Assembly: GCF_044647545.1 (NCBI RefSeq)
Contig: NZ_CP172818.1
Strand: one strand, 5' to 3'
Length of the DNA stretch: 64,000 nucleotides
Origin: Escherichia coli
GTDB taxonomy: Bacteria > Pseudomonadota > Gammaproteobacteria > Enterobacterales > Enterobacteriaceae
Below the pieces are notes generated by a model. That model ran no database searches and had not been told where the DNA came from. It worked only from the letters and a program-made list of their open reading frames with translations. Position numbers and translations under genes: made by a program. Below are positions 6,320-63,999 of the stretch, piece after piece (the stretch's first letter is position 1; every line of letters starts with the position of its first letter).

Positions 6320-8047
6320 ATGATTTCAGGCATTTTAGCATCCCCGGGTATCGCTTTCGGTAAAGCTCTGCTTCTGAAAGAAGACGAAATTGTCATTGAC
6401 CGGAAAAAAATTTCTGCCGACCAGGTTGATCAGGAAGTTGAACGTTTTCTGAGCGGTCGTGCCAAGGCATCAGCCCAGCTGGAAACGATCAAAACGAAAG
6501 CTGGTGAAACGTTCGGTGAAGAAAAAGAAGCCATCTTTGAAGGGCATATTATGCTGCTCGAAGATGAGGAGCTGGAGCAGGAAATCATAGCCCTGATTAA
6601 AGATAAGCACATGACAGCTGACGCAGCTGCTCATGAAGTTATCGAAGGTCAGGCTTCTGCCCTGGAAGAGCTGGATGATGAATACCTGAAAGAACGTGCG
6701 GCTGACGTACGTGATATCGGTAAGCGCCTGCTGCGCAACATCCTGGGCCTGAAGATTATCGACCTGAGCGCCATTCAGGATGAAGTCATTCTGGTTGCCG
6801 CTGACCTGACGCCGTCCGAAACCGCACAGCTGAACCTGAAGAAGGTGCTGGGTTTCATCACCGACGCGGGTGGCCGTACTTCCCACACCTCTATCATGGC
6901 GCGTTCTCTGGAACTGCCTGCTATCGTGGGTACCGGTAGCGTCACCTCTCAGGTGAAAAATGACGACTATCTGATTCTGGATGCCGTAAATAATCAGGTT
7001 TACGTCAATCCAACCAACGAAGTTATTGATAAAATGCGCGCTGTTCAGGAGCAAGTGGCTTCTGAAAAAGCAGAGCTTGCTAAACTGAAAGATCTGCCAG
7101 CTATTACGCTGGACGGTCACCAGGTAGAAGTGTGCGCTAACATTGGTACGGTTCGTGACGTTGAAGGTGCAGAGCGTAACGGCGCTGAAGGCGTTGGTCT
7201 GTATCGTACTGAGTTCCTGTTCATGGACCGCGACGCGCTGCCCACTGAAGAAGAACAGTTTGCTGCTTACAAAGCAGTGGCTGAAGCGTGTGGCTCGCAG
7301 GCGGTTATCGTTCGTACCATGGACATCGGCGGCGACAAAGAGCTGCCATACATGAACTTCCCGAAAGAAGAGAACCCGTTCCTCGGCTGGCGCGCTATCC
7401 GTATCGCAATGGATCGTAAAGAGATCCTGCGCGATCAGCTCCGCGCTATCCTGCGTGCCTCGGCTTTCGGTAAATTGCGCATTATGTTCCCGATGATCAT
7501 CTCTGTTGAAGAAGTGCGTGCACTGCGCAAAGAGATCGAAATCTACAAACAGGAACTGCGCGACGAAGGTAAAGCGTTTGACGAGTCAATTGAAATCGGC
7601 GTAATGGTGGAAACACCGGCTGCCGCAACAATTGCACGTCATTTAGCCAAAGAAGTTGATTTCTTTAGTATCGGCACCAATGATTTAACGCAGTACACTC
7701 TGGCAGTTGACCGTGGTAATGATATGATTTCACACCTTTACCAGCCAATGTCACCGTCCGTGCTGAACTTGATCAAGCAAGTTATTGATGCTTCTCATGC
7801 TGAAGGCAAATGGACTGGCATGTGTGGTGAGCTTGCTGGCGATGAACGTGCTACACTTCTGTTGCTGGGGATGGGTCTGGACGAATTCTCTATGAGCGCC
7901 ATTTCTATCCCGCGCATTAAGAAGATTATCCGTAACACGAACTTCGAAGATGCGAAGGTGTTAGCAGAGCAGGCTCTTGCTCAACCGACAACGGACGAGT
8001 TAATGACGCTGGTTAACAAGTTCATTGAAGAAAAAACAATCTGCTAA
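6320..8047 (+). CDS. ptsI: PTS enzyme I (575 aa)
   Basis: [43 protein letters not shown]...; full length, directly downstream of ptsH. Confidence 0.97.
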
Positions 8048-8087
8048 TCCACGAGATGCGGCCCAATTTACTGCTTAGGAGAAGATC

Positions 8088-8597
8088 ATGGGTTTGTTCG
8101 ATAAACTGAAATCTCTGGTTTCCGACGACAAGAAGGATACCGGAACTATTGAGATCATTGCTCCGCTCTCTGGCGAGATCGTCAATATCGAAGACGTGCC
8201 GGATGTCGTTTTTGCGGAAAAAATCGTTGGTGATGGCATTGCTATCAAACCAACGGGTAACAAAATGGTCGCGCCTGTAGACGGCACCATTGGTAAAATC
8301 TTTGAAACCAACCACGCGTTCTCTATCGAATCTGATAGCGGCGTTGAATTGTTCGTCCACTTCGGTATCGACACCGTTGAACTGAAAGGCGAAGGCTTCA
8401 AGCGTATTGCTGAAGAAGGTCAGCGCGTGAAAGTTGGCGATACCGTGATTGAATTCGATCTGCCGCTGCTGGAAGAGAAAGCCAAGTCTACCCTGACTCC
8501 GGTTGTTATCTCCAACATGGACGAAATCAAAGAACTGATCAAACTGTCCGGTAGCGTAACCGTGGGTGAAACCCCGGTTATCCGCATCAAGAAGTAA
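8088..8597 (+). CDS. crr: glucose-specific PTS EIIA (169 aa)
   Basis: [82 protein letters not shown]... Confidence 0.97.
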
Positions 8598-8611
8598 TTC
8601 TTGCCGCAGTG

Positions 8612-8641
8612 AAAAATGGCGCCCATCGGCGCCATTTTTTT
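8612..8641. terminator. bidirectional intrinsic terminator between crr and pdxK
   Basis: aaaaatggcgcc-catc-ggcgccattttttt: 8-bp GC stem flanked by an A-run and a T-run; it overlaps the pdxK stop codon on the opposite strand. Confidence 0.65.
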
Positions 8642-9491
8642 ATGCTTCAGCCAGAGGCGGCAAAATCAATTCATCGCTCTCATGCTGCTGGGTATAGCGC
8701 ATCACTTCCAGTACGCGCAACCCCGCGCGGTGCACCGCATCGGTTAACGCCTCCCCTTTCAGCAAACCACTGATAAGCTGAGCACAAAACAGGTCGCCAG
8801 TCCCTTTCAGGTCAGTTTTAACCCGTGAATGGGAAATGACATTCACGCTGTCGGCACTGACCACCACCACCTGCATCTCCTGATTTTCTTCATTACCGGA
8901 GGCGCTGGTAATCACCACCCATTTTAATGTGTCTGAAAGCAGACTTTTTGCGGCAGCAATGGCACTGTCGAGATCGCGGCAATTTTTACCGGTCAGGATT
9001 TCCAGCTCAAAGATATTGGGGGTAATTCCCTGCGCCAGCGGCAGTAAATATTGTCGATACGCTTCGGGAAGGTCAGGTTTGACATAAATTCCGCTATCAA
9101 TATCGCCGATCACCGGATCGACCATAATCAATAAGTCAGGATGGTCTTTGCGTAGCGCAGTCAGCCACTCGGCAAGGATTTTGATTTGCGATGCCGTTCC
9201 CATATAGCCCGTGGTTACAGCACGAAGTTGGCGCAGCGCATCACGCTCCTGAAGCGCACGCAAATAACCGCTAAACCATTCATCCGGAATCGCACCACCG
9301 TAGAAAGTGTCATAATGCGGCGTATTGCTCAGCAATACCGTCGGCACGGCAAAGACATTCAGGCCGTTCTGTTTGATAGCAGGCACCGCAATGCTGTTGC
9401 CCACGCTGCCGTACACTACCTGCGACTGCACGGCGACGATATCCGCCTGCAGTGCCCTGCTCTTATCGTTAAACAACAACAAACTACTCAT
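8640..9491 (-). CDS. pdxK: pyridoxal/pyridoxine/pyridoxamine kinase PdxK (283 aa)
   Basis: [60 protein letters not shown]...; ribokinase-like fold. Confidence 0.95.
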
Positions 9492-9532
9492 TTAATTTTT
9501 TCTCCTTGCCGATGATCCTCATCGTATTCCAG

Positions 9533-9955
<423 letters not shown>

Positions 9956-9957
9956 TC

Positions 9958-10869
9958 TTAAATCCCCGCCCCCTGGCTAAAATGCTCTTCCCCAAACACC
10001 CCGGTAGAAAGGTAGCGATCGCCACGATCGCAGATGATCGCCACCACCACCGCGCCAGGGTTAGCTTTTGCCACTCGCAGTGCACCAGCAACCGCGCCGC
10101 CGGAGCTAACGCCACAGAATATTCCTTCCCGCACTGCCAGTTCGCGCATGGTGTTTTCCGCTTCTCGCTGATGAATATCCAGCACCTCATCCACCAGCGA
10201 AGCGTTGAAAATCCCCGGCAGATATTCCGCAGGCCAGCGGCGAATGCCGGGAATGCTGCTGCCCTCTTCCGGCTGTAAGCCGACAATGGTCACCGGTTTG
10301 AATTGTTCGCGCATAAAGCGCGACACGCCGGTAATGGTGCCGGTTGTTCCCATGCTGGAGACAAAATGGGTAATGCGCCCGCCGGTTTGCTGCCAGATTT
10401 CCGGCCCGGTGGTGGTGTAATGGGCGTAAGGGTTATCGGGATTATTGAACTGATCGAGCAGCTTTCCTTCACCACGATTAGCCATCTCCAGCGCCAGATC
10501 GCGCGCACCTTCCATGCCCTGCTCTTTGGTGACCAGAATCAGTTCCGCACCGTAGGCACGCATTGCCGCACGGCGTTCCTGGCTCATGTTGTCGGGCATC
10601 AGCAATTTCATGCGATAGCCTTTAAGCGCGGCAATCATCGCCAGCGCAATGCCGGTGTTACCACTGGTGGCTTCGATCAACACATCACCCGGTTTAATCT
10701 CGCCGCGCTTTTCCGCCTCGACAATCATCGAAAGCGCTGCACGGTCTTTTACCGATCCCGCCGGGTTATTACCTTCCAGTTTCAACCAGACTTCACTGCC
10801 GTTATTCGGCCCCATTCGCTGCAACTTCACCAGAGGCGTATTGCCAATTGTTTGTTCTAATGTACTCAC
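9958..10869 (-). CDS. cysM: cysteine synthase B / O-acetylserine sulfhydrylase B (303 aa), GTG start
   Basis: ORF track 9958..10947; start taken at GTG 10867-10869 giving VSTLEQTIGNTPLVKLQRMGP...; C-terminus ...GEEHFSQGAGI. Confidence 0.95.
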   Translation of the reverse strand: MSTLEQTIGNTPLVKLQRMGPNNGSEVWLKLEGNNPAGSVKDRAALSMIVEAEKRGEIKPGDVLIEATSGNTGIALAMIAALKGYRMKLLMPDNMSQERRAAMRAYGAELILVTKEQGMEGARDLALEMANRGEGKLLDQFNNPDNPYAHYTTTGPEIWQQTGGRITHFVSSMGTTGTITGVSRFMREQFKPVTIVGLQPEEGSSIPGIRRWPAEYLPGIFNASLVDEVLDIHQREAENTMRELAVREGIFCGVSSGGAVAGALRVAKANPGAVVVAIICDRGDRYLSTGVFGEEHFSQGAGI

Positions 10870-10892
10870 GATCTCTGTCCATACGTGGTGTT

Positions 10893-10928
10893 GCCTGATG
10901 CGACGCTTGCGCGTCTTATCAGGCCTAC
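10893..10928. repeat. REP (repetitive extragenic palindromic) element
   Basis: gcctgatgcgacgcttgcgcgtcttatcaggcctac matches the canonical E. coli REP consensus form; lies between cysA and cysM. Confidence 0.7.
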
Positions 10929-10948
10929 AGGTTACAAACCTTGCCATT

Positions 10949-10981
10949 AAAAAGCCCGGATCGCGGGAAGCGCCTCCGGGC
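10949..10981 (-). terminator. hairpin with T-run downstream of cysA, a possible attenuator ahead of cysM
   Basis: On the - strand: gcccggaggcgcttcccgcgatccgggc followed by TTTTT; about 20 nt past the cysA stop. Confidence 0.5.
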
Positions 10982-11002
10982 GTTTAACATTCACTCAACC
11001 TA

Positions 11003-12100
11003 TCAGGCGCTTTGTGCGAGAGCAAGTTCCTCATCGCGGGTTTCAATACGCTCGTCGCCGTTATACAGCCGCGCATGTTGCAGGCCGACGAACAGACGAT
11101 CGCCGCGCACTGGCGCATCATCCCCGCGCATCACCACCGTCAAGGGTTCGTCATACCATCCCAGCGGCTGCACCACTAATTGGGTGTAGTGACCTTTCGG
11201 GCTGGCTTCCAGTACCTGTACGGGTAGCGGCGAATCGAGGCTGGTACGGCGGCTGATATCCACTTCCCACGGACGCAGGAAGAGATCCACCGGCCCCTGA
11301 TACGCAGGTGTATAGCCCAGCGGCCAGCGATGTGCGCCAACATGGAACTGCCCGCCGCGAATGGTTCCCTGCAGGCGGTTCACTTCGCCCATAAATTCGA
11401 GTACAAAACGGGTCGCTGGTTCGCGCCATACCTGGTCCGGTGCATCAGCCTGCTCGATATTGCCCTGGCTCATCACCACTACACGATCGGCTACTTCGGT
11501 CGCTTCTTCCTGGTCATGGGTCACAAACACGCTGGTGAATTTCAGCTCTTCATGTAACTGACGCAGCCGGCGACGCAACTCTTTACGCACCTGCGCATCC
11601 AGCGCGCCAAACGGTTCATCAAGCAGCAGAATTTGCGGTTCTACGGCAAGCGCGCGCGCCAGCGCCACACGCTGTTTCTGGCCGCCGGAAAGCTGCGCAG
11701 GATAGCGGTCTGCCAGATGGGCAAGCTGCACCATCTCCAGCAATTTTGTCACTTTCGCTTTGATAGCTGCGGCATTCGGGCGCTCGCGACGCGGCAGCAC
11801 CGTCAGGCCGAAAGCGATATTGTCGAACACCGTCATATGGCGGAACAGCGCGTAATGCTGAAACACGAAACCGACTTTACGATCGCGCGCATGCAGGCGG
11901 CTAACGTCGGTGCCGTGGAAGCGAATATGCCCGCTGGTTTGATGCTCCAGCCCGGCGATAATGCGCAGCAGCGTGGTTTTCCCGGAACCGGACGGCCCCA
12001 GCAATGCGACCATCTGACCAGAAGGAATATCCAGTGAGATATCGTTCAGCACCTGGGTGCGACCAAAAGACTTCTTAATATTGGCAATCTCAATGCTCAT
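11003..12100 (-). CDS. cysA: sulfate/thiosulfate ABC transporter ATP-binding protein (365 aa)
   Basis: [54 protein letters not shown]...; Walker A and LSGGQ signature present. Confidence 0.97.
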
Positions 12101-14920: not shown

Positions 14921-14958
14921 GGGAAAAGACGAAATCCTCCCCACAAATGCAGGGAGGA
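14921..14958 (-). terminator. putative intrinsic terminator downstream of ucpA
   Basis: Stem tcctccc/gggagga (14935-14941 and 14952-14958) followed on the - strand by a T-rich run; about 13 nt past the ucpA stop, upstream of cysP. Confidence 0.45.
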
Positions 14959-25077: not shown

Positions 25078-25082
25078 CTCCC

Positions 25083-34337: not shown

Positions 34338-35741
34338 TTAAACAATGCGAAACGCATCGACTAATACACAGCGACGCAGACGGACAAACGTCCGCGCGCT
34401 GGTTACCCCTTCACCGGTTGGCGTGGTGATGGTCATCGTGGTCCAGCCTTCCCCGCCCAGCCCCAGCCCGGCAATGCACGGTCCGTTCTTAACGAAAATG
34501 CTGGTATCAATGGCATTCGCCATCTGGTTCATGTTCTCGATATTGCGCGAGTGCATTGCCGCCGTGTGGTGGCAACCGCCTTCCAGTTTCACCGCCAGCG
34601 CAATGGCATCCGCCACGTTGGCGACGCGCACGACGGGCAGCACCGGCATCATCAGTTCAGTCACAGCAAACGGATGTTCTGCGGTGGTTTCTACAAACAG
34701 CAGTCGCGTTTGTTCCGGAACTTTAAGGCCGATTGCCGCCGCGATTTTCGCCGCATCGCGACCAACCCAGTCACGGCTGACGATGCTTTTTCCGCGCTCG
34801 TCGATATTTTTCAGCAACACCGGTTGCAGCTGCTGCGCCTGCTCTGCGGTCAGTTTCACCGCGTGCTGGCCTTCCATCAGACGCATCAGTTCATCGGCTA
34901 CGCTATCCACAACAATCAGTACCTTTTCGTCGGCACAAATGATGTTGTTATCGAAAGACGCGCCTTTGACGATGGACTGAGCAGCACGGGCGAGGTCGGC
35001 GGTTTCATCCACCACTACCGGCGGGTTGCCAGCGCCTGCGGCAATCAGACGTTTATTGGTGTGTTTACGCGCCGCTTCTACTACCGCTTCGCCGCCGGTC
35101 ACCACCAGCAGGCCGATGCCCGGAAACTTGAACAAACGTTGAGCGGTTTCAATATCCGGATTTGCCACAGTAACCAGTAAGTTTTCCGGCCCGCCTGCGG
35201 CAACAATCGCCTGGTTGAGCAGCGTGATCGCCCGCTGGGAGACTTTTTTCGCCGCCGGATGCGGGGCAAAAATGACGCTGTTGCCCGCGGCAATCAGGCT
35301 GATGGCGTTATTAATGACGGTTGCCGCCGGGTTGGTGGACGGAGTTACCGAAGCCACCACGCCCCAGGGCGCGTTTTCAATTAAAGTCAGGCCGTTGTCG
35401 CCAGTCAGCACTTGCGGAGAGAGGCACTCAACGCCTGGTGTGCCGCGCGCCTGAGCGACGTTTTTGGCAAATTTATCTTCAACGCGCCCCATGCCGGTTT
35501 CACTGACGGCAAGTTCCGCTAAATCTCTGGCGTGTTTTTCGCCTGCTTCACGAATGGCAGCAATGGCTAACTGGCGCATTGCCACGCTTTTTAACCCTTG
35601 CTGGGCGACTTTGGCTGCCGCAACGGCGTCATCCAGGGACGCGAAAACGCCCATCTCATGAACGGCGGCGGGCGGCGTGTCACTGCTTTGCATTTTCAGC
35701 AGTACCGCTTTCACCACCTGTTCAATATCCTGTTGATTCAT
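34338..35741 (-). CDS. eutE: CoA-acylating acetaldehyde dehydrogenase EutE (467 aa)
   Basis: MNQQDIEQVVKAVLLKMQSS...; aldehyde dehydrogenase fold. Confidence 0.95.
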   Translation of the reverse strand: MNQQDIEQVVKAVLLKMQSSDTPPAAVHEMGVFASLDDAVAAAKVAQQGLKSVAMRQLAIAAIREAGEKHARDLAELAVSETGMGRVEDKFAKNVAQARGTPGVECLSPQVLTGDNGLTLIENAPWGVVASVTPSTNPAATVINNAISLIAAGNSVIFAPHPAAKKVSQRAITLLNQAIVAAGGPENLLVTVANPDIETAQRLFKFPGIGLLVVTGGEAVVEAARKHTNKRLIAAGAGNPPVVVDETADLARAAQSIVKGASFDNNIICADEKVLIVVDSVADELMRLMEGQHAVKLTAEQAQQLQPVLLKNIDERGKSIVSRDWVGRDAAKIAAAIGLKVPEQTRLLFVETTAEHPFAVTELMMPVLPVVRVANVADAIALAVKLEGGCHHTAAMHSRNIENMNQMANAIDTSIFVKNGPCIAGLGLGGEGWTTMTITTPTGEGVTSARTFVRLRRCVLVDAFRIV

Positions 35742-39900: not shown

Positions 39901-40159
39901 TGGAGAGATATTTTATGTTAAGAAAAAAAACATACATTGTATGAATATAAACGGGAACCAATAAGTTTTGTTTATCATATTATATAGACTTCTTTAATTT
40001 TTAATAATTAGCAGAATACATATTTAATTACTGTTGTATTCTAAAAATATTTATCTTCACCCCATTTAAAATAATCTAGGATTTTATTCAGAAAATAAAA
40101 AAGACCCGAAAAAATCCTTCCCCCCCAAAGGCGCTAATTCATCCATATTAACTCAAGAC

Positions 40160-40710
40160 TTCATAGAAAATTTTCTTAACCCCCATATAGAGCCTCTCTA
40201 AGCCTATTATCCTTTTATTATCAAATCTCTAACCCATCTTTACCTATCTGCAAAAACACACACAAACCACTATTTTATTTTTTTTAAAAACGGAAAAAAG
40301 CATAAGGAAACGAAACAAATGAGAAAAATTTCAAAAAAAAAGAAAAATAGAAAAAAAATAATAAAAAAAACGAAAGCGAATACGAAAGGAAGAAAAAAAA
40401 AAACAAAAAATTTCAAATTCCCCAACCCACAGCCACAAAGCAAAACGAACAAACCTGAGGAACTTAAAGAAAAAGAGTATATGAAACTTAAACTAACACC
40501 TAGCTAACTATAGTAACCGAAGAAAGAACACAAAAAAGAAACAAAAATACAAAAAAAAACTAAACAAAAAAAAAAGAAAATCATAAAATTTTTATCTCAA
40601 CATAAAAAAAAAATTGAACAAAAAAAAAATGACCCCAAAAAAAACACCCCAAAAAACAACAAAAGGAACACAACAAAACAAACAAAAAACACCCCAACAC
40701 CACAGGAAGG
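40160..40710. repeat. unclassified adenine-rich low-complexity tract (no coding capacity)
   Basis: By manual count 39-44 A per 60 nt on the + strand across 40321-40680; at least four A10-A11 homopolymer runs (40393-40403, 40566-40575, 40604-40613, 40620-40629); a C7 run at 40120-40126; short degenerate repeats (aaaaaacaccccaa appears twice). Only low-complexity K-rich and F-rich pseudo-ORFs. Confidence 0.7.
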
Positions 40711-40728
40711 GAGAGGAATCAGCTAAAC

Positions 40729-63535: not shown

Positions 63536-63999
63536 TTACAGCAAACCGGCATGCTTAAGCGCCGCTCTGACCGTCTCACGACCACTGTCGGTGATTGGTG
63601 TCATTGGCAGGCGCAGCGTATCGGTCGCCACAAGACCCAGTTCCTTACATGCCCATTTCACAGGGATTGGATTGGGTTCGACAAATAGTTTGTTGTGTAA
63701 TGGCATCAGACGCTGATTAATAACGCGTGCCTCGGCAAAATGCCCTTCTGCTGCCAGTTTGCACATCTGGGCCATATCACGCGCTGCGACGTTAGCCGTA
63801 ACGGAAATAACCCCATGACCGCCCAATTGCATGAAGTCCAGCGCGCTCGCATCATCGCCGCTCAGCAGAACAAAATCATCTGAAACCAGCTCTTTGATCT
63901 GGTTTACACGCGTTAAGTTCCCTGTTGCCTCTTTGATTCCGATAATATTTTTTACTTTCGCCAGACGGCCCACCGTTTCCGGGAGCAGATCGCAGCCAG
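63536..63999 (-). CDS. dapA: 4-hydroxy-tetrahydrodipicolinate synthase DapA, 3' portion (5' end beyond window)
   Basis: C-terminal sequence ...[70 protein letters not shown]...KHAGLL; the frame stays open to the window edge. Confidence 0.95.

Follow-up and report, generated by a model that had tools for sequence, protein, structure and literature searches.

In the 64-kb stretch of Escherichia coli DNA analysed here (hereafter the window), the stop codons of the convergent genes yfeK and cysM lie 2 bp apart, with neither a terminator nor the yfeS gene between them. This observation is confirmed, and the arrangement is the ordinary, already annotated majority state of E. coli, present in about three quarters of the genomes. 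We consider it very probable that the junction is of the ancestral type, that yfeS was gained rather than lost, that termination at the junction occurs by the action of Rho or by collision of RNA polymerases, and that a 9-bp change at the end of yfeK in the window is an artefact. Under this joint explanation, yfeK would be driven by sigma-E, encode a small secreted protein of the DUF5329 family and be located tail to tail with the CysB-controlled cysPUWAM, and a ~960-bp low-GC cassette consisting of yfeS and a REP/BIME block would have been inserted at the ancestral-type junction in a K-12/B-like lineage.

The yfeK/cysM junction in the window

The two genes, the spacer between them and the predicted promoter of yfeK are located as follows:

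9535-9562, + strand: predicted sigma-E-type promoter GAAACTT-N16-TCAAA, upstream of yfeK, from the motif pattern
9596-9955, + strand: yfeK coding sequence, with a GTG start, 119 amino acids and the TAA stop at 9953-9955 (direct reading and the list of open reading frames agree)
9956-9957: 2-bp spacer 'tc' between the two stop codons, by direct reading
9958-10869, - strand: cysM coding sequence (cysteine synthase B, 303 amino acids), with the stop at 9958-9960 (tta on the + strand)

In tblastn searches with the K-12 proteins, PdxK, YfeK and CysM are recovered in the expected order, the cysM product being 98.4% identical to K-12 CysM over residues 1-303. The synteny is pdxK(-) yfeK(+) cysM(-) cysA(-), no gene separates yfeK from cysM, and the stops are spaced as TAA-TC-TTA, the canonical 2 bp. 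According to the annotation of the orthologous locus, cysM is the final gene of the cysPUWAM operon. The K-12 YfeS query produces zero tblastn matches across the whole 64-kb window, and the K-12-type cassette, i.e. a yfeS coding sequence with a WGR domain (PF05406) together with a REP/BIME block, is not found in it.

A previous, sequence-only reading of this DNA had claimed that the stops are 2 bp apart without a terminator and that yfeS is missing. The former claim is upheld by the direct reading, the list of open reading frames, folding and the terminator scan, and the latter by the empty tblastn search. The gene of some 240 codons that the same reading places between yfeK and cysM in K-12 is indeed there (244 amino acids in MG1655). 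Because only 2 bp separate the stops, both transcripts must terminate inside the opposing coding sequence, as had been pointed out in the same reading. The arrangement is not a product of chance, given its identical annotation in other genomes and its conservation across thousands of them.

YfeK is a member of the DUF5329/YfeK family, with the scores for both profiles exceeding the curated cutoffs: the match to the Pfam family DUF5329 (PF17263) has an E-value of 1.7e-31 and 108.8 bits against a cutoff of 27, and the match to the NCBIfam family NF007646 (PRK10318.1-3) has 271 bits against a cutoff of 171. The 19 N-terminal residues resemble a signal peptide. The length of the protein is 119 amino acids in the window, 122 in the near-identical genomes and 124 in K-12 where, unlike in the window, YfeK ends with ...VPAEGN*.

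The -10 consensus of sigma-E promoters is TCAAA. The predicted yfeK promoter fits the sigma-E type in having a GGAACTT-like -35 element, a 16-nt spacer and a TCAAA-like -10 element, and the pattern GAAACTT-N16-TCAAA has one match in the window and none in 100 shuffles. The -35 motif of sigma-E promoters has been given as GGAACTT and yfeK is among the listed sigma-E promoters (PMC3326320); yfeKS has also been described as part of the sigma-E regulon (PMC2685091). A second sigma-E-like motif, GAACTT-N17-TCAAA, is present on the - strand at 63893-63920, in the bamC/dapA region close to where the window ends; 0.43 occurrences of this looser pattern are expected by chance.

The junction across Escherichia coli

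The survey set consisted of 5426 complete E. coli genomes. A 1.1-kb query spanning the junction matches 5425 of these, and most of the sampled rows annotate pdxK, yfeK and cysM alone. The canonical 85-bp junction (...ACGGTGCCTGCGCAATAA-TC-TTA...) is present in 4009 genomes, ungapped in all sampled rows, and in 62 metagenome contigs; the 2-bp spacing of yfeK and cysM is annotated in FDAARGOS_497, O104:H4 and IMT16316. The yfeS-less pdxK-yfeK><cysM-cysA locus of IMT16316, FDAARGOS_497, O104:H4, O157:H7 and Nissle 1917 has the same gene order, spacer and flanks as the window, the difference being that yfeK of the window is 9 bp shorter, probably as an artefact.

The 955-bp K-12 insert is found in 1381 of the 5426 genomes and, in a low-stringency search, the yfeS coding sequence alone in 1387, a frequency of 25% that is inflated by the many positives that are laboratory K-12 or B derivatives, so that the natural frequency of yfeS must be lower. 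In some of the positives, yfeS is broken by an IS element, namely ISVsa5 in T2 (L092 6604-8676) and IS1A in LR-03. Among the ~4040 yfeS-less genomes, no yfeS-like DNA was detected down to ~65-70% identity. Relocation of yfeS to another site is rejected on the strength of this result and the lack of a match in the window; the possibility of yfeS lying elsewhere in the genome had been raised in the sequence-only reading as a check on its claim, and the gene turned up neither in the window nor in the yfeS-less E. coli genomes. The companion check, whether reference genomes have the same 2-bp junction, gives a split answer: most E. coli do (4009/5426) but MG1655 does not. Thus, K-12 does not represent the species norm at yfeK/cysM, and the absence of a gene relative to MG1655 is not evidence of its deletion.

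Tight convergence is not confined to this pair of genes: 3 of the 9 convergent junctions, as counted in the orthologous IMT16316 annotation, have spacers of 5 bp or less. The other two are:

183-186: yfeH/ypeB, with overlapping stops (TTAA)
25078-25082: hemF/eutR, with a 5-bp spacer

Like yfeK/cysM, both of these are at most 5 bp wide and have no intergenic terminator, so that termination must fall within the partner gene. The yfeK/cysM junction is of the same kind, differing only as a site of inserted cargo in some lineages. The previous description of this junction as atypical does not hold, given that it is the majority state in E. coli and that the window contains two other junctions of 5 bp or less.

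Gain or loss of yfeS

In K-12 MG1655 (b2419-b2421), the order is yfeK, yfeS, a REP/BIME block and cysM. This locus shares with the window the flanking genes, the sigma-E-driven yfeK and its convergence with cysM, but contains an additional insertion of ~960 bp that consists of yfeS, encoding a WGR-domain protein of 244 amino acids, and the REP/BIME block; the convergent units are accordingly separated by 955 bp, and the interval from yfeS to cysM contains REP hairpins. The GC content of yfeS is 39-40%, compared with 46-57% in the flanks. The only outgroup that carries yfeS is a Pseudocitrobacter MAG, with the same breakpoints and trailing BIME as in K-12, and between this MAG and K-12 the nucleotide identity of yfeS is 95.9%, compared with 79.4% for yfeK and 89.6% for cysM. 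The low GC content, together with a between-genus similarity far above that of the flanks, points to yfeS as a horizontally moved insertion and, by this evidence, the cassette is one that is exchanged between genera. The sequence-only reading had held that the intervening gene was deleted in this genome; the same two features indicate that it had the polarity reversed.

An 8-bp direct repeat, ATTAATCC, bounds the cassette of yfeS and BIME in K-12, EC0026B and the Pseudocitrobacter MAG (copies at 2066-2073 and 3019-3026 in L001, and likewise in L010 and L091). These repeats resemble a target-site duplication. WGR is the sole domain detected in YfeS with the Pfam/NCBIfam profiles, PADLOC yields no defence-system profile match for YfeS, and neither a transposase nor an integrase is present in the cassette; on these grounds, yfeS was rejected as a defence gene or a mobile element. 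Terminal inverted repeats are absent from the cassette as well.

The outgroup loci, which were retrieved using YfeK, include several in which the two genes converge tightly:

Pseudocitrobacter faecalis: 2-bp junction as in E. coli, with a nearly identical sequence
Enterobacteriaceae UBA5654: 1-bp junction
Escherichia sp. E1V33 (cryptic Escherichia clade): natural deletion at this spot, with yfeK and cysM overlapping
Citrobacter amalonaticus and a Superficieibacter species: ~35-bp junction

and others in which the junction carries cargo:

E. albertii (L014 3370-4749): two ORFs of 280 and 175 amino acids, opposite strand, no confident family
C. sedlakii (L015 3431-5317): ORF of 628 amino acids, no family
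S. electus (L017 3473-3895): SnoaL-like protein of 140 amino acids, its stop overlapping the cysM stop

The presence of unrelated cargo at the same junction in other taxa suggests that small accessory genes have landed here repeatedly, yfeS being one of them, and yfeK/cysM can be regarded as a small example of such a site between conserved convergent genes.

The converse history, in which yfeS was present in the ancestor of the strain and was then deleted, with the 2-bp junction as the deletion scar, strikes us as very improbable. In its favour, the yfeS+ and yfeS-less alleles agree in their left breakpoint and in the ...TDKTVPA tail of YfeK (in more distant genera, YfeK ends with ...TDKTL*), the ATTAATCC direct repeats flanking the cassette could mediate a deletion, and the isolate BS-01 has flanks closest to those of yfeS+ lineages, yet lacks yfeS. 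However, deletion between the ATTAATCC copies predicts ...GCGGAAGGAAATTAATCCTTAAAT, whereas the observed sequence is ...GCGCAATAATCTTAAAT, and because of this mismatch a simple repeat-mediated deletion was rejected as the origin of the yfeS-less allele. Also at odds with loss are the uniformity of the yfeS-less allele in the 4009 genomes and its presence in P. faecalis, the canonical empty site in all near-identical relatives of the window, and the combination in yfeS of a foreign GC content with a between-genus divergence far below that of the flanks. The insertion of yfeS into an ancestral-type junction is the preferred reading, with the qualification that the polarity is not airtight: given the shared ...TDKTVPA tail, the sequences might also reflect a cargo-bearing ancestor of Escherichia and Pseudocitrobacter, followed by loss.

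Routes of transcription termination

Folding of the junction, with 120 nt per strand, gives z-scores of 0.02 (+) and -0.58 (-), no better than those of shuffled sequences. The consensus terminator scan shows no site at the yfeK/cysM junction, and the Rfam scan of positions 8000-12000 shows no structured RNA there. The sole Rfam match in the scanned region is a sub-threshold one to naRNA4, a REP-derived RNA, in the cysA-cysM spacer at 10892-10924 on the + strand (37.9 bits against a gathering score of 59.5); this match points to a REP element within the cysPUWAM operon.

Two other convergent junctions of the window served as positive controls, and both form strong hairpins in either direction, with z-scores of -5.2/-4.8 for crr/pdxK and -4.5/-3.4 for yfeW/yfeX, in agreement with what the sequence-only reading had reported of these two. 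They are bidirectional intrinsic terminators, with GC-rich stems of 13-15 bp flanked by runs of A and U in spacers of 42-57 bp and, like yfeK/cysM, join convergent units that need defined 3' ends. In contrast to these, the yfeK/cysM junction is too short to hold such a stem and forms no structure of this type, and the hallmark of a bidirectional intrinsic terminator, a GC-rich hairpin between the stops with A/U tracts, is not found at this junction, which thus also exemplifies convergent units without any intrinsic terminator.

C-rich, G-poor untranslated RNA is associated with Rho loading. A tract of this type follows yfeK:

9956-10055, + strand: C-rich, G-poor tract 3' of the yfeK stop, antisense to the 3' end of cysM; candidate Rho loading region

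Over these 100 nt, the + strand contains 40% C and 19% G (C/G of 2.1) and, for ~200 nt past the yfeK stop, C/G is at least 1.2, and mostly above 1.4, in 78-nt windows. Judged by its composition, yfeK is therefore followed by the untranslated C-rich, G-poor stretch of ~80 nt on which Rho could load. The strand downstream of cysM is weakly C-biased (C/G of 1.1-1.4).

The structure of the junction and its evolutionary history are established by the comparisons above, whereas for the route of termination we infer that Rho would act at 9956-10055. The C-rich composition of the antisense-cysM RNA favours Rho-dependent termination for yfeK, the transcript of which would most likely end on this untranslated RNA; for the cysM transcript, Rho action, collision of RNA polymerases or trimming by exonucleases within antisense yfeK would be the most likely routes. 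Termination at the junction is thus probably Rho-dependent or collision-dependent and located inside the opposing gene. Single-molecule work has shown that head-on collisions of RNA polymerases contribute to termination at convergent pairs, with defined collision sites at stem-loops (10.1101/2022.10.23.513370); unlike those sites, yfeK/cysM has no stem-loop. According to a recent preprint (10.64898/2026.03.23.713779), REPs, such as those that accompany yfeS in K-12, terminate transcription partially in a Rho-dependent manner and stabilise mRNA, and their location between convergent genes is associated with higher expression of both.

A possible regulatory role of the junction

In yfeS-less strains, the envelope-stress and sulfur regulons might conceivably interfere with each other through antisense transcription. 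A stronger proposition makes the junction a regulatory device, in which antisense RNA from sigma-E-induced yfeK lowers cysM/cysPUWAM, the reverse takes place under sulfur limitation, and the K-12 cassette is an insulator. We think this improbable, even though a terminator is lacking between the yfeK and cysM units, the promoters of yfeK and cysPUWAM answer to different stresses, termination at convergent pairs is influenced by head-on collisions of polymerases (10.1101/2022.10.23.513370) and REPs of convergent genes go along with higher expression of both (10.64898/2026.03.23.713779). The C-rich tract past yfeK predicts early Rho termination and hence limited antisense read-through, and the spacing of the junction varies among genera, from an overlap to ~35 bp, which argues against a tuned device. 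Still less credence is due to the fuller version, under which the junction would couple two stress regulons, the yfeS and BIME cassette would uncouple them in K-12-like strains, and the site might be one where small foreign genes have landed repeatedly across Enterobacteriaceae. If such coupling of regulons were real, K-12 would give a misleading picture of the yfeK/cysM locus.

A 9-bp difference at the end of yfeK

The window differs from the canonical allele immediately before the yfeK stop:

9949-9952, + strand: private change, with CCTG in place of the canonical 13-mer GGTGCCTGCGCAA (net -9 bp), from alignments
9929-9937, + strand: ATTGCGCAG, the 5' arm that remains of a 9-bp inverted repeat, the 3' arm being lost in the window

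Instead of the canonical junction ...AAAACGGTGCCTGCGCAATAATCTTAAAT, with a YfeK of 122 amino acids, the window has ...AAAACCCTGTAATCTTAAAT, which is 9 bp shorter, and YfeK ends with ...TDKTL* rather than ...TDKTVPAQ*. In the canonical allele, ATTGCGCAG pairs with CTGCGCAAT across the yfeK stop codon, and the folding energies are -14.0 (+) and -18.4 (-) kcal/mol, compared with -8.2 and -12.9 kcal/mol for the window allele; the z-scores of these folds, from about -1.1 to -1.4 for both alleles, are not significant. The repeat ATTGCGCAG...CTGCGCAAT was rejected as a cryptic terminator (z of about -1.2, no U-tract).

Searches for the 9-bp variant gave zero matches among the 5426 genomes and among metagenome contigs, with the 62 canonical contigs as the positive control, and the variant is accordingly dismissed as a circulating allele. 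All of its bases occur in order in the canonical sequence, of which it is thus a strict subsequence, and a single contiguous deletion was rejected as its source, given that none converts the canonical sequence into that of the window. Because the change is one of four deletion-only differences in the window, one of which is plainly corrupted, it is probably a sequence or assembly artefact. The 2-bp spacing of the stops is unaffected whether the change is real or not.

That the shorter end of yfeK is real, arising from a private mutation or from recombination over a short patch, and that the junction is a mutational hot spot, appears to us rather unlikely, although several observations are compatible with it: the change preserves the reading frame and yields the same ...TDKTL* ending as in Citrobacter and Superficieibacter, the 13-mer GGTGCCTGCGCAA sits in the loop and 3' arm of the inverted repeat, BS-01 and BS-04 alter the same 13-mer, and in Escherichia sp. 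E1V33 a natural deletion at this place makes yfeK and cysM overlap. Weighing more heavily are the zero counts among the genomes and metagenome contigs against 62 canonical contigs, the requirement for at least two separate deletions (4 + 5 bp), and the company of the other deletion-only differences, one of them obviously corrupted; besides, the variants of BS-01 and BS-04, two isolates from a single study, are likewise deletion-only, and they disrupt the reading frame of yfeK. The artefact is the reading retained here.

In the two chicken isolates BS-04 (L004 1525-1545) and BS-01 (L005 1525-1548), the 13-mer is reduced to CCC and AGCCTC, respectively. The TAA is out of frame in both, and the annotated yfeK extends 23 bp into cysM; either sequencing errors are systematic at this site or the site is a genuine hot spot of indels.

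Differences between the window and near-identical genomes

The window represents an ST648-like E. coli. Its first 25 kb are identical to those of IMT16316, MS6198, ECONIH1 and other genomes except for four sites, one of which is the yfeK/cysM junction, and the remaining 39 kb show a handful more differences from the IMT16316-like genomes. The four larger differences from IMT16316 are all strict deletion-only subsequences of the sequence of the relative. Apart from the junction, these are:

~29612: eutA/eutB boundary (- strand genes), net loss of 27 bp compared with IMT16316
32273-32289: REP in the eutG-eutH spacer, 61 bp in IMT16316 reduced to 15 bp (46 bp shorter), deletion-only
39981-40718: 738-bp low-complexity stretch between eutS and maeB, 52% A and 9% G

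At the eutA/eutB boundary, which is also the site of the CPZ-55 prophage in K-12, the 27-bp loss takes away the ATG and the first 7 codons of eutB, together with the spacer that separates the start from the ribosome-binding site; on the gene strand, GAGGGAACGACTTATGAAACTAAAGACCACATTGTTCGGC has become GAGGGCTTTCGGC, a strict subsequence of the former. The stretch at 39981-40718 replaces 2159 bp with two glycosyltransferase genes in IMT16316. As many as 735 of its 738 bases embed in order in these 2159 bp, compared with 696-713 for shuffled sequences, and none of the 5426 complete E. coli genomes contains the stretch. Its appearance is that of a corrupted or collapsed sequence and not of a biological feature. 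The deletion-only pattern of all four differences points to local corruption, in assembly, basecalling or processing, rather than to biology, and the fine-scale features of the window accordingly call for caution, given this localized deletion-type corruption that includes the yfeK/cysM junction.

Single-base differences from IMT16316 are located at 11569, 14926, 20559, 34787, 49258 and 57653. Those at 34787 and 49258 are SNPs, and those at 14926 (upstream of cysP), 20559 (in the hairpin loop of the yfeW/yfeX terminator) and 57653 (adjoining a REP) are 1-bp deletions. The A-to-G change at 11569 replaces Trp with Arg in CysA compared with IMT16316 (RRWL to RRRL). Of the four differences in the first 25 kb, three involve the cysPUWAM operon, possibly by coincidence.
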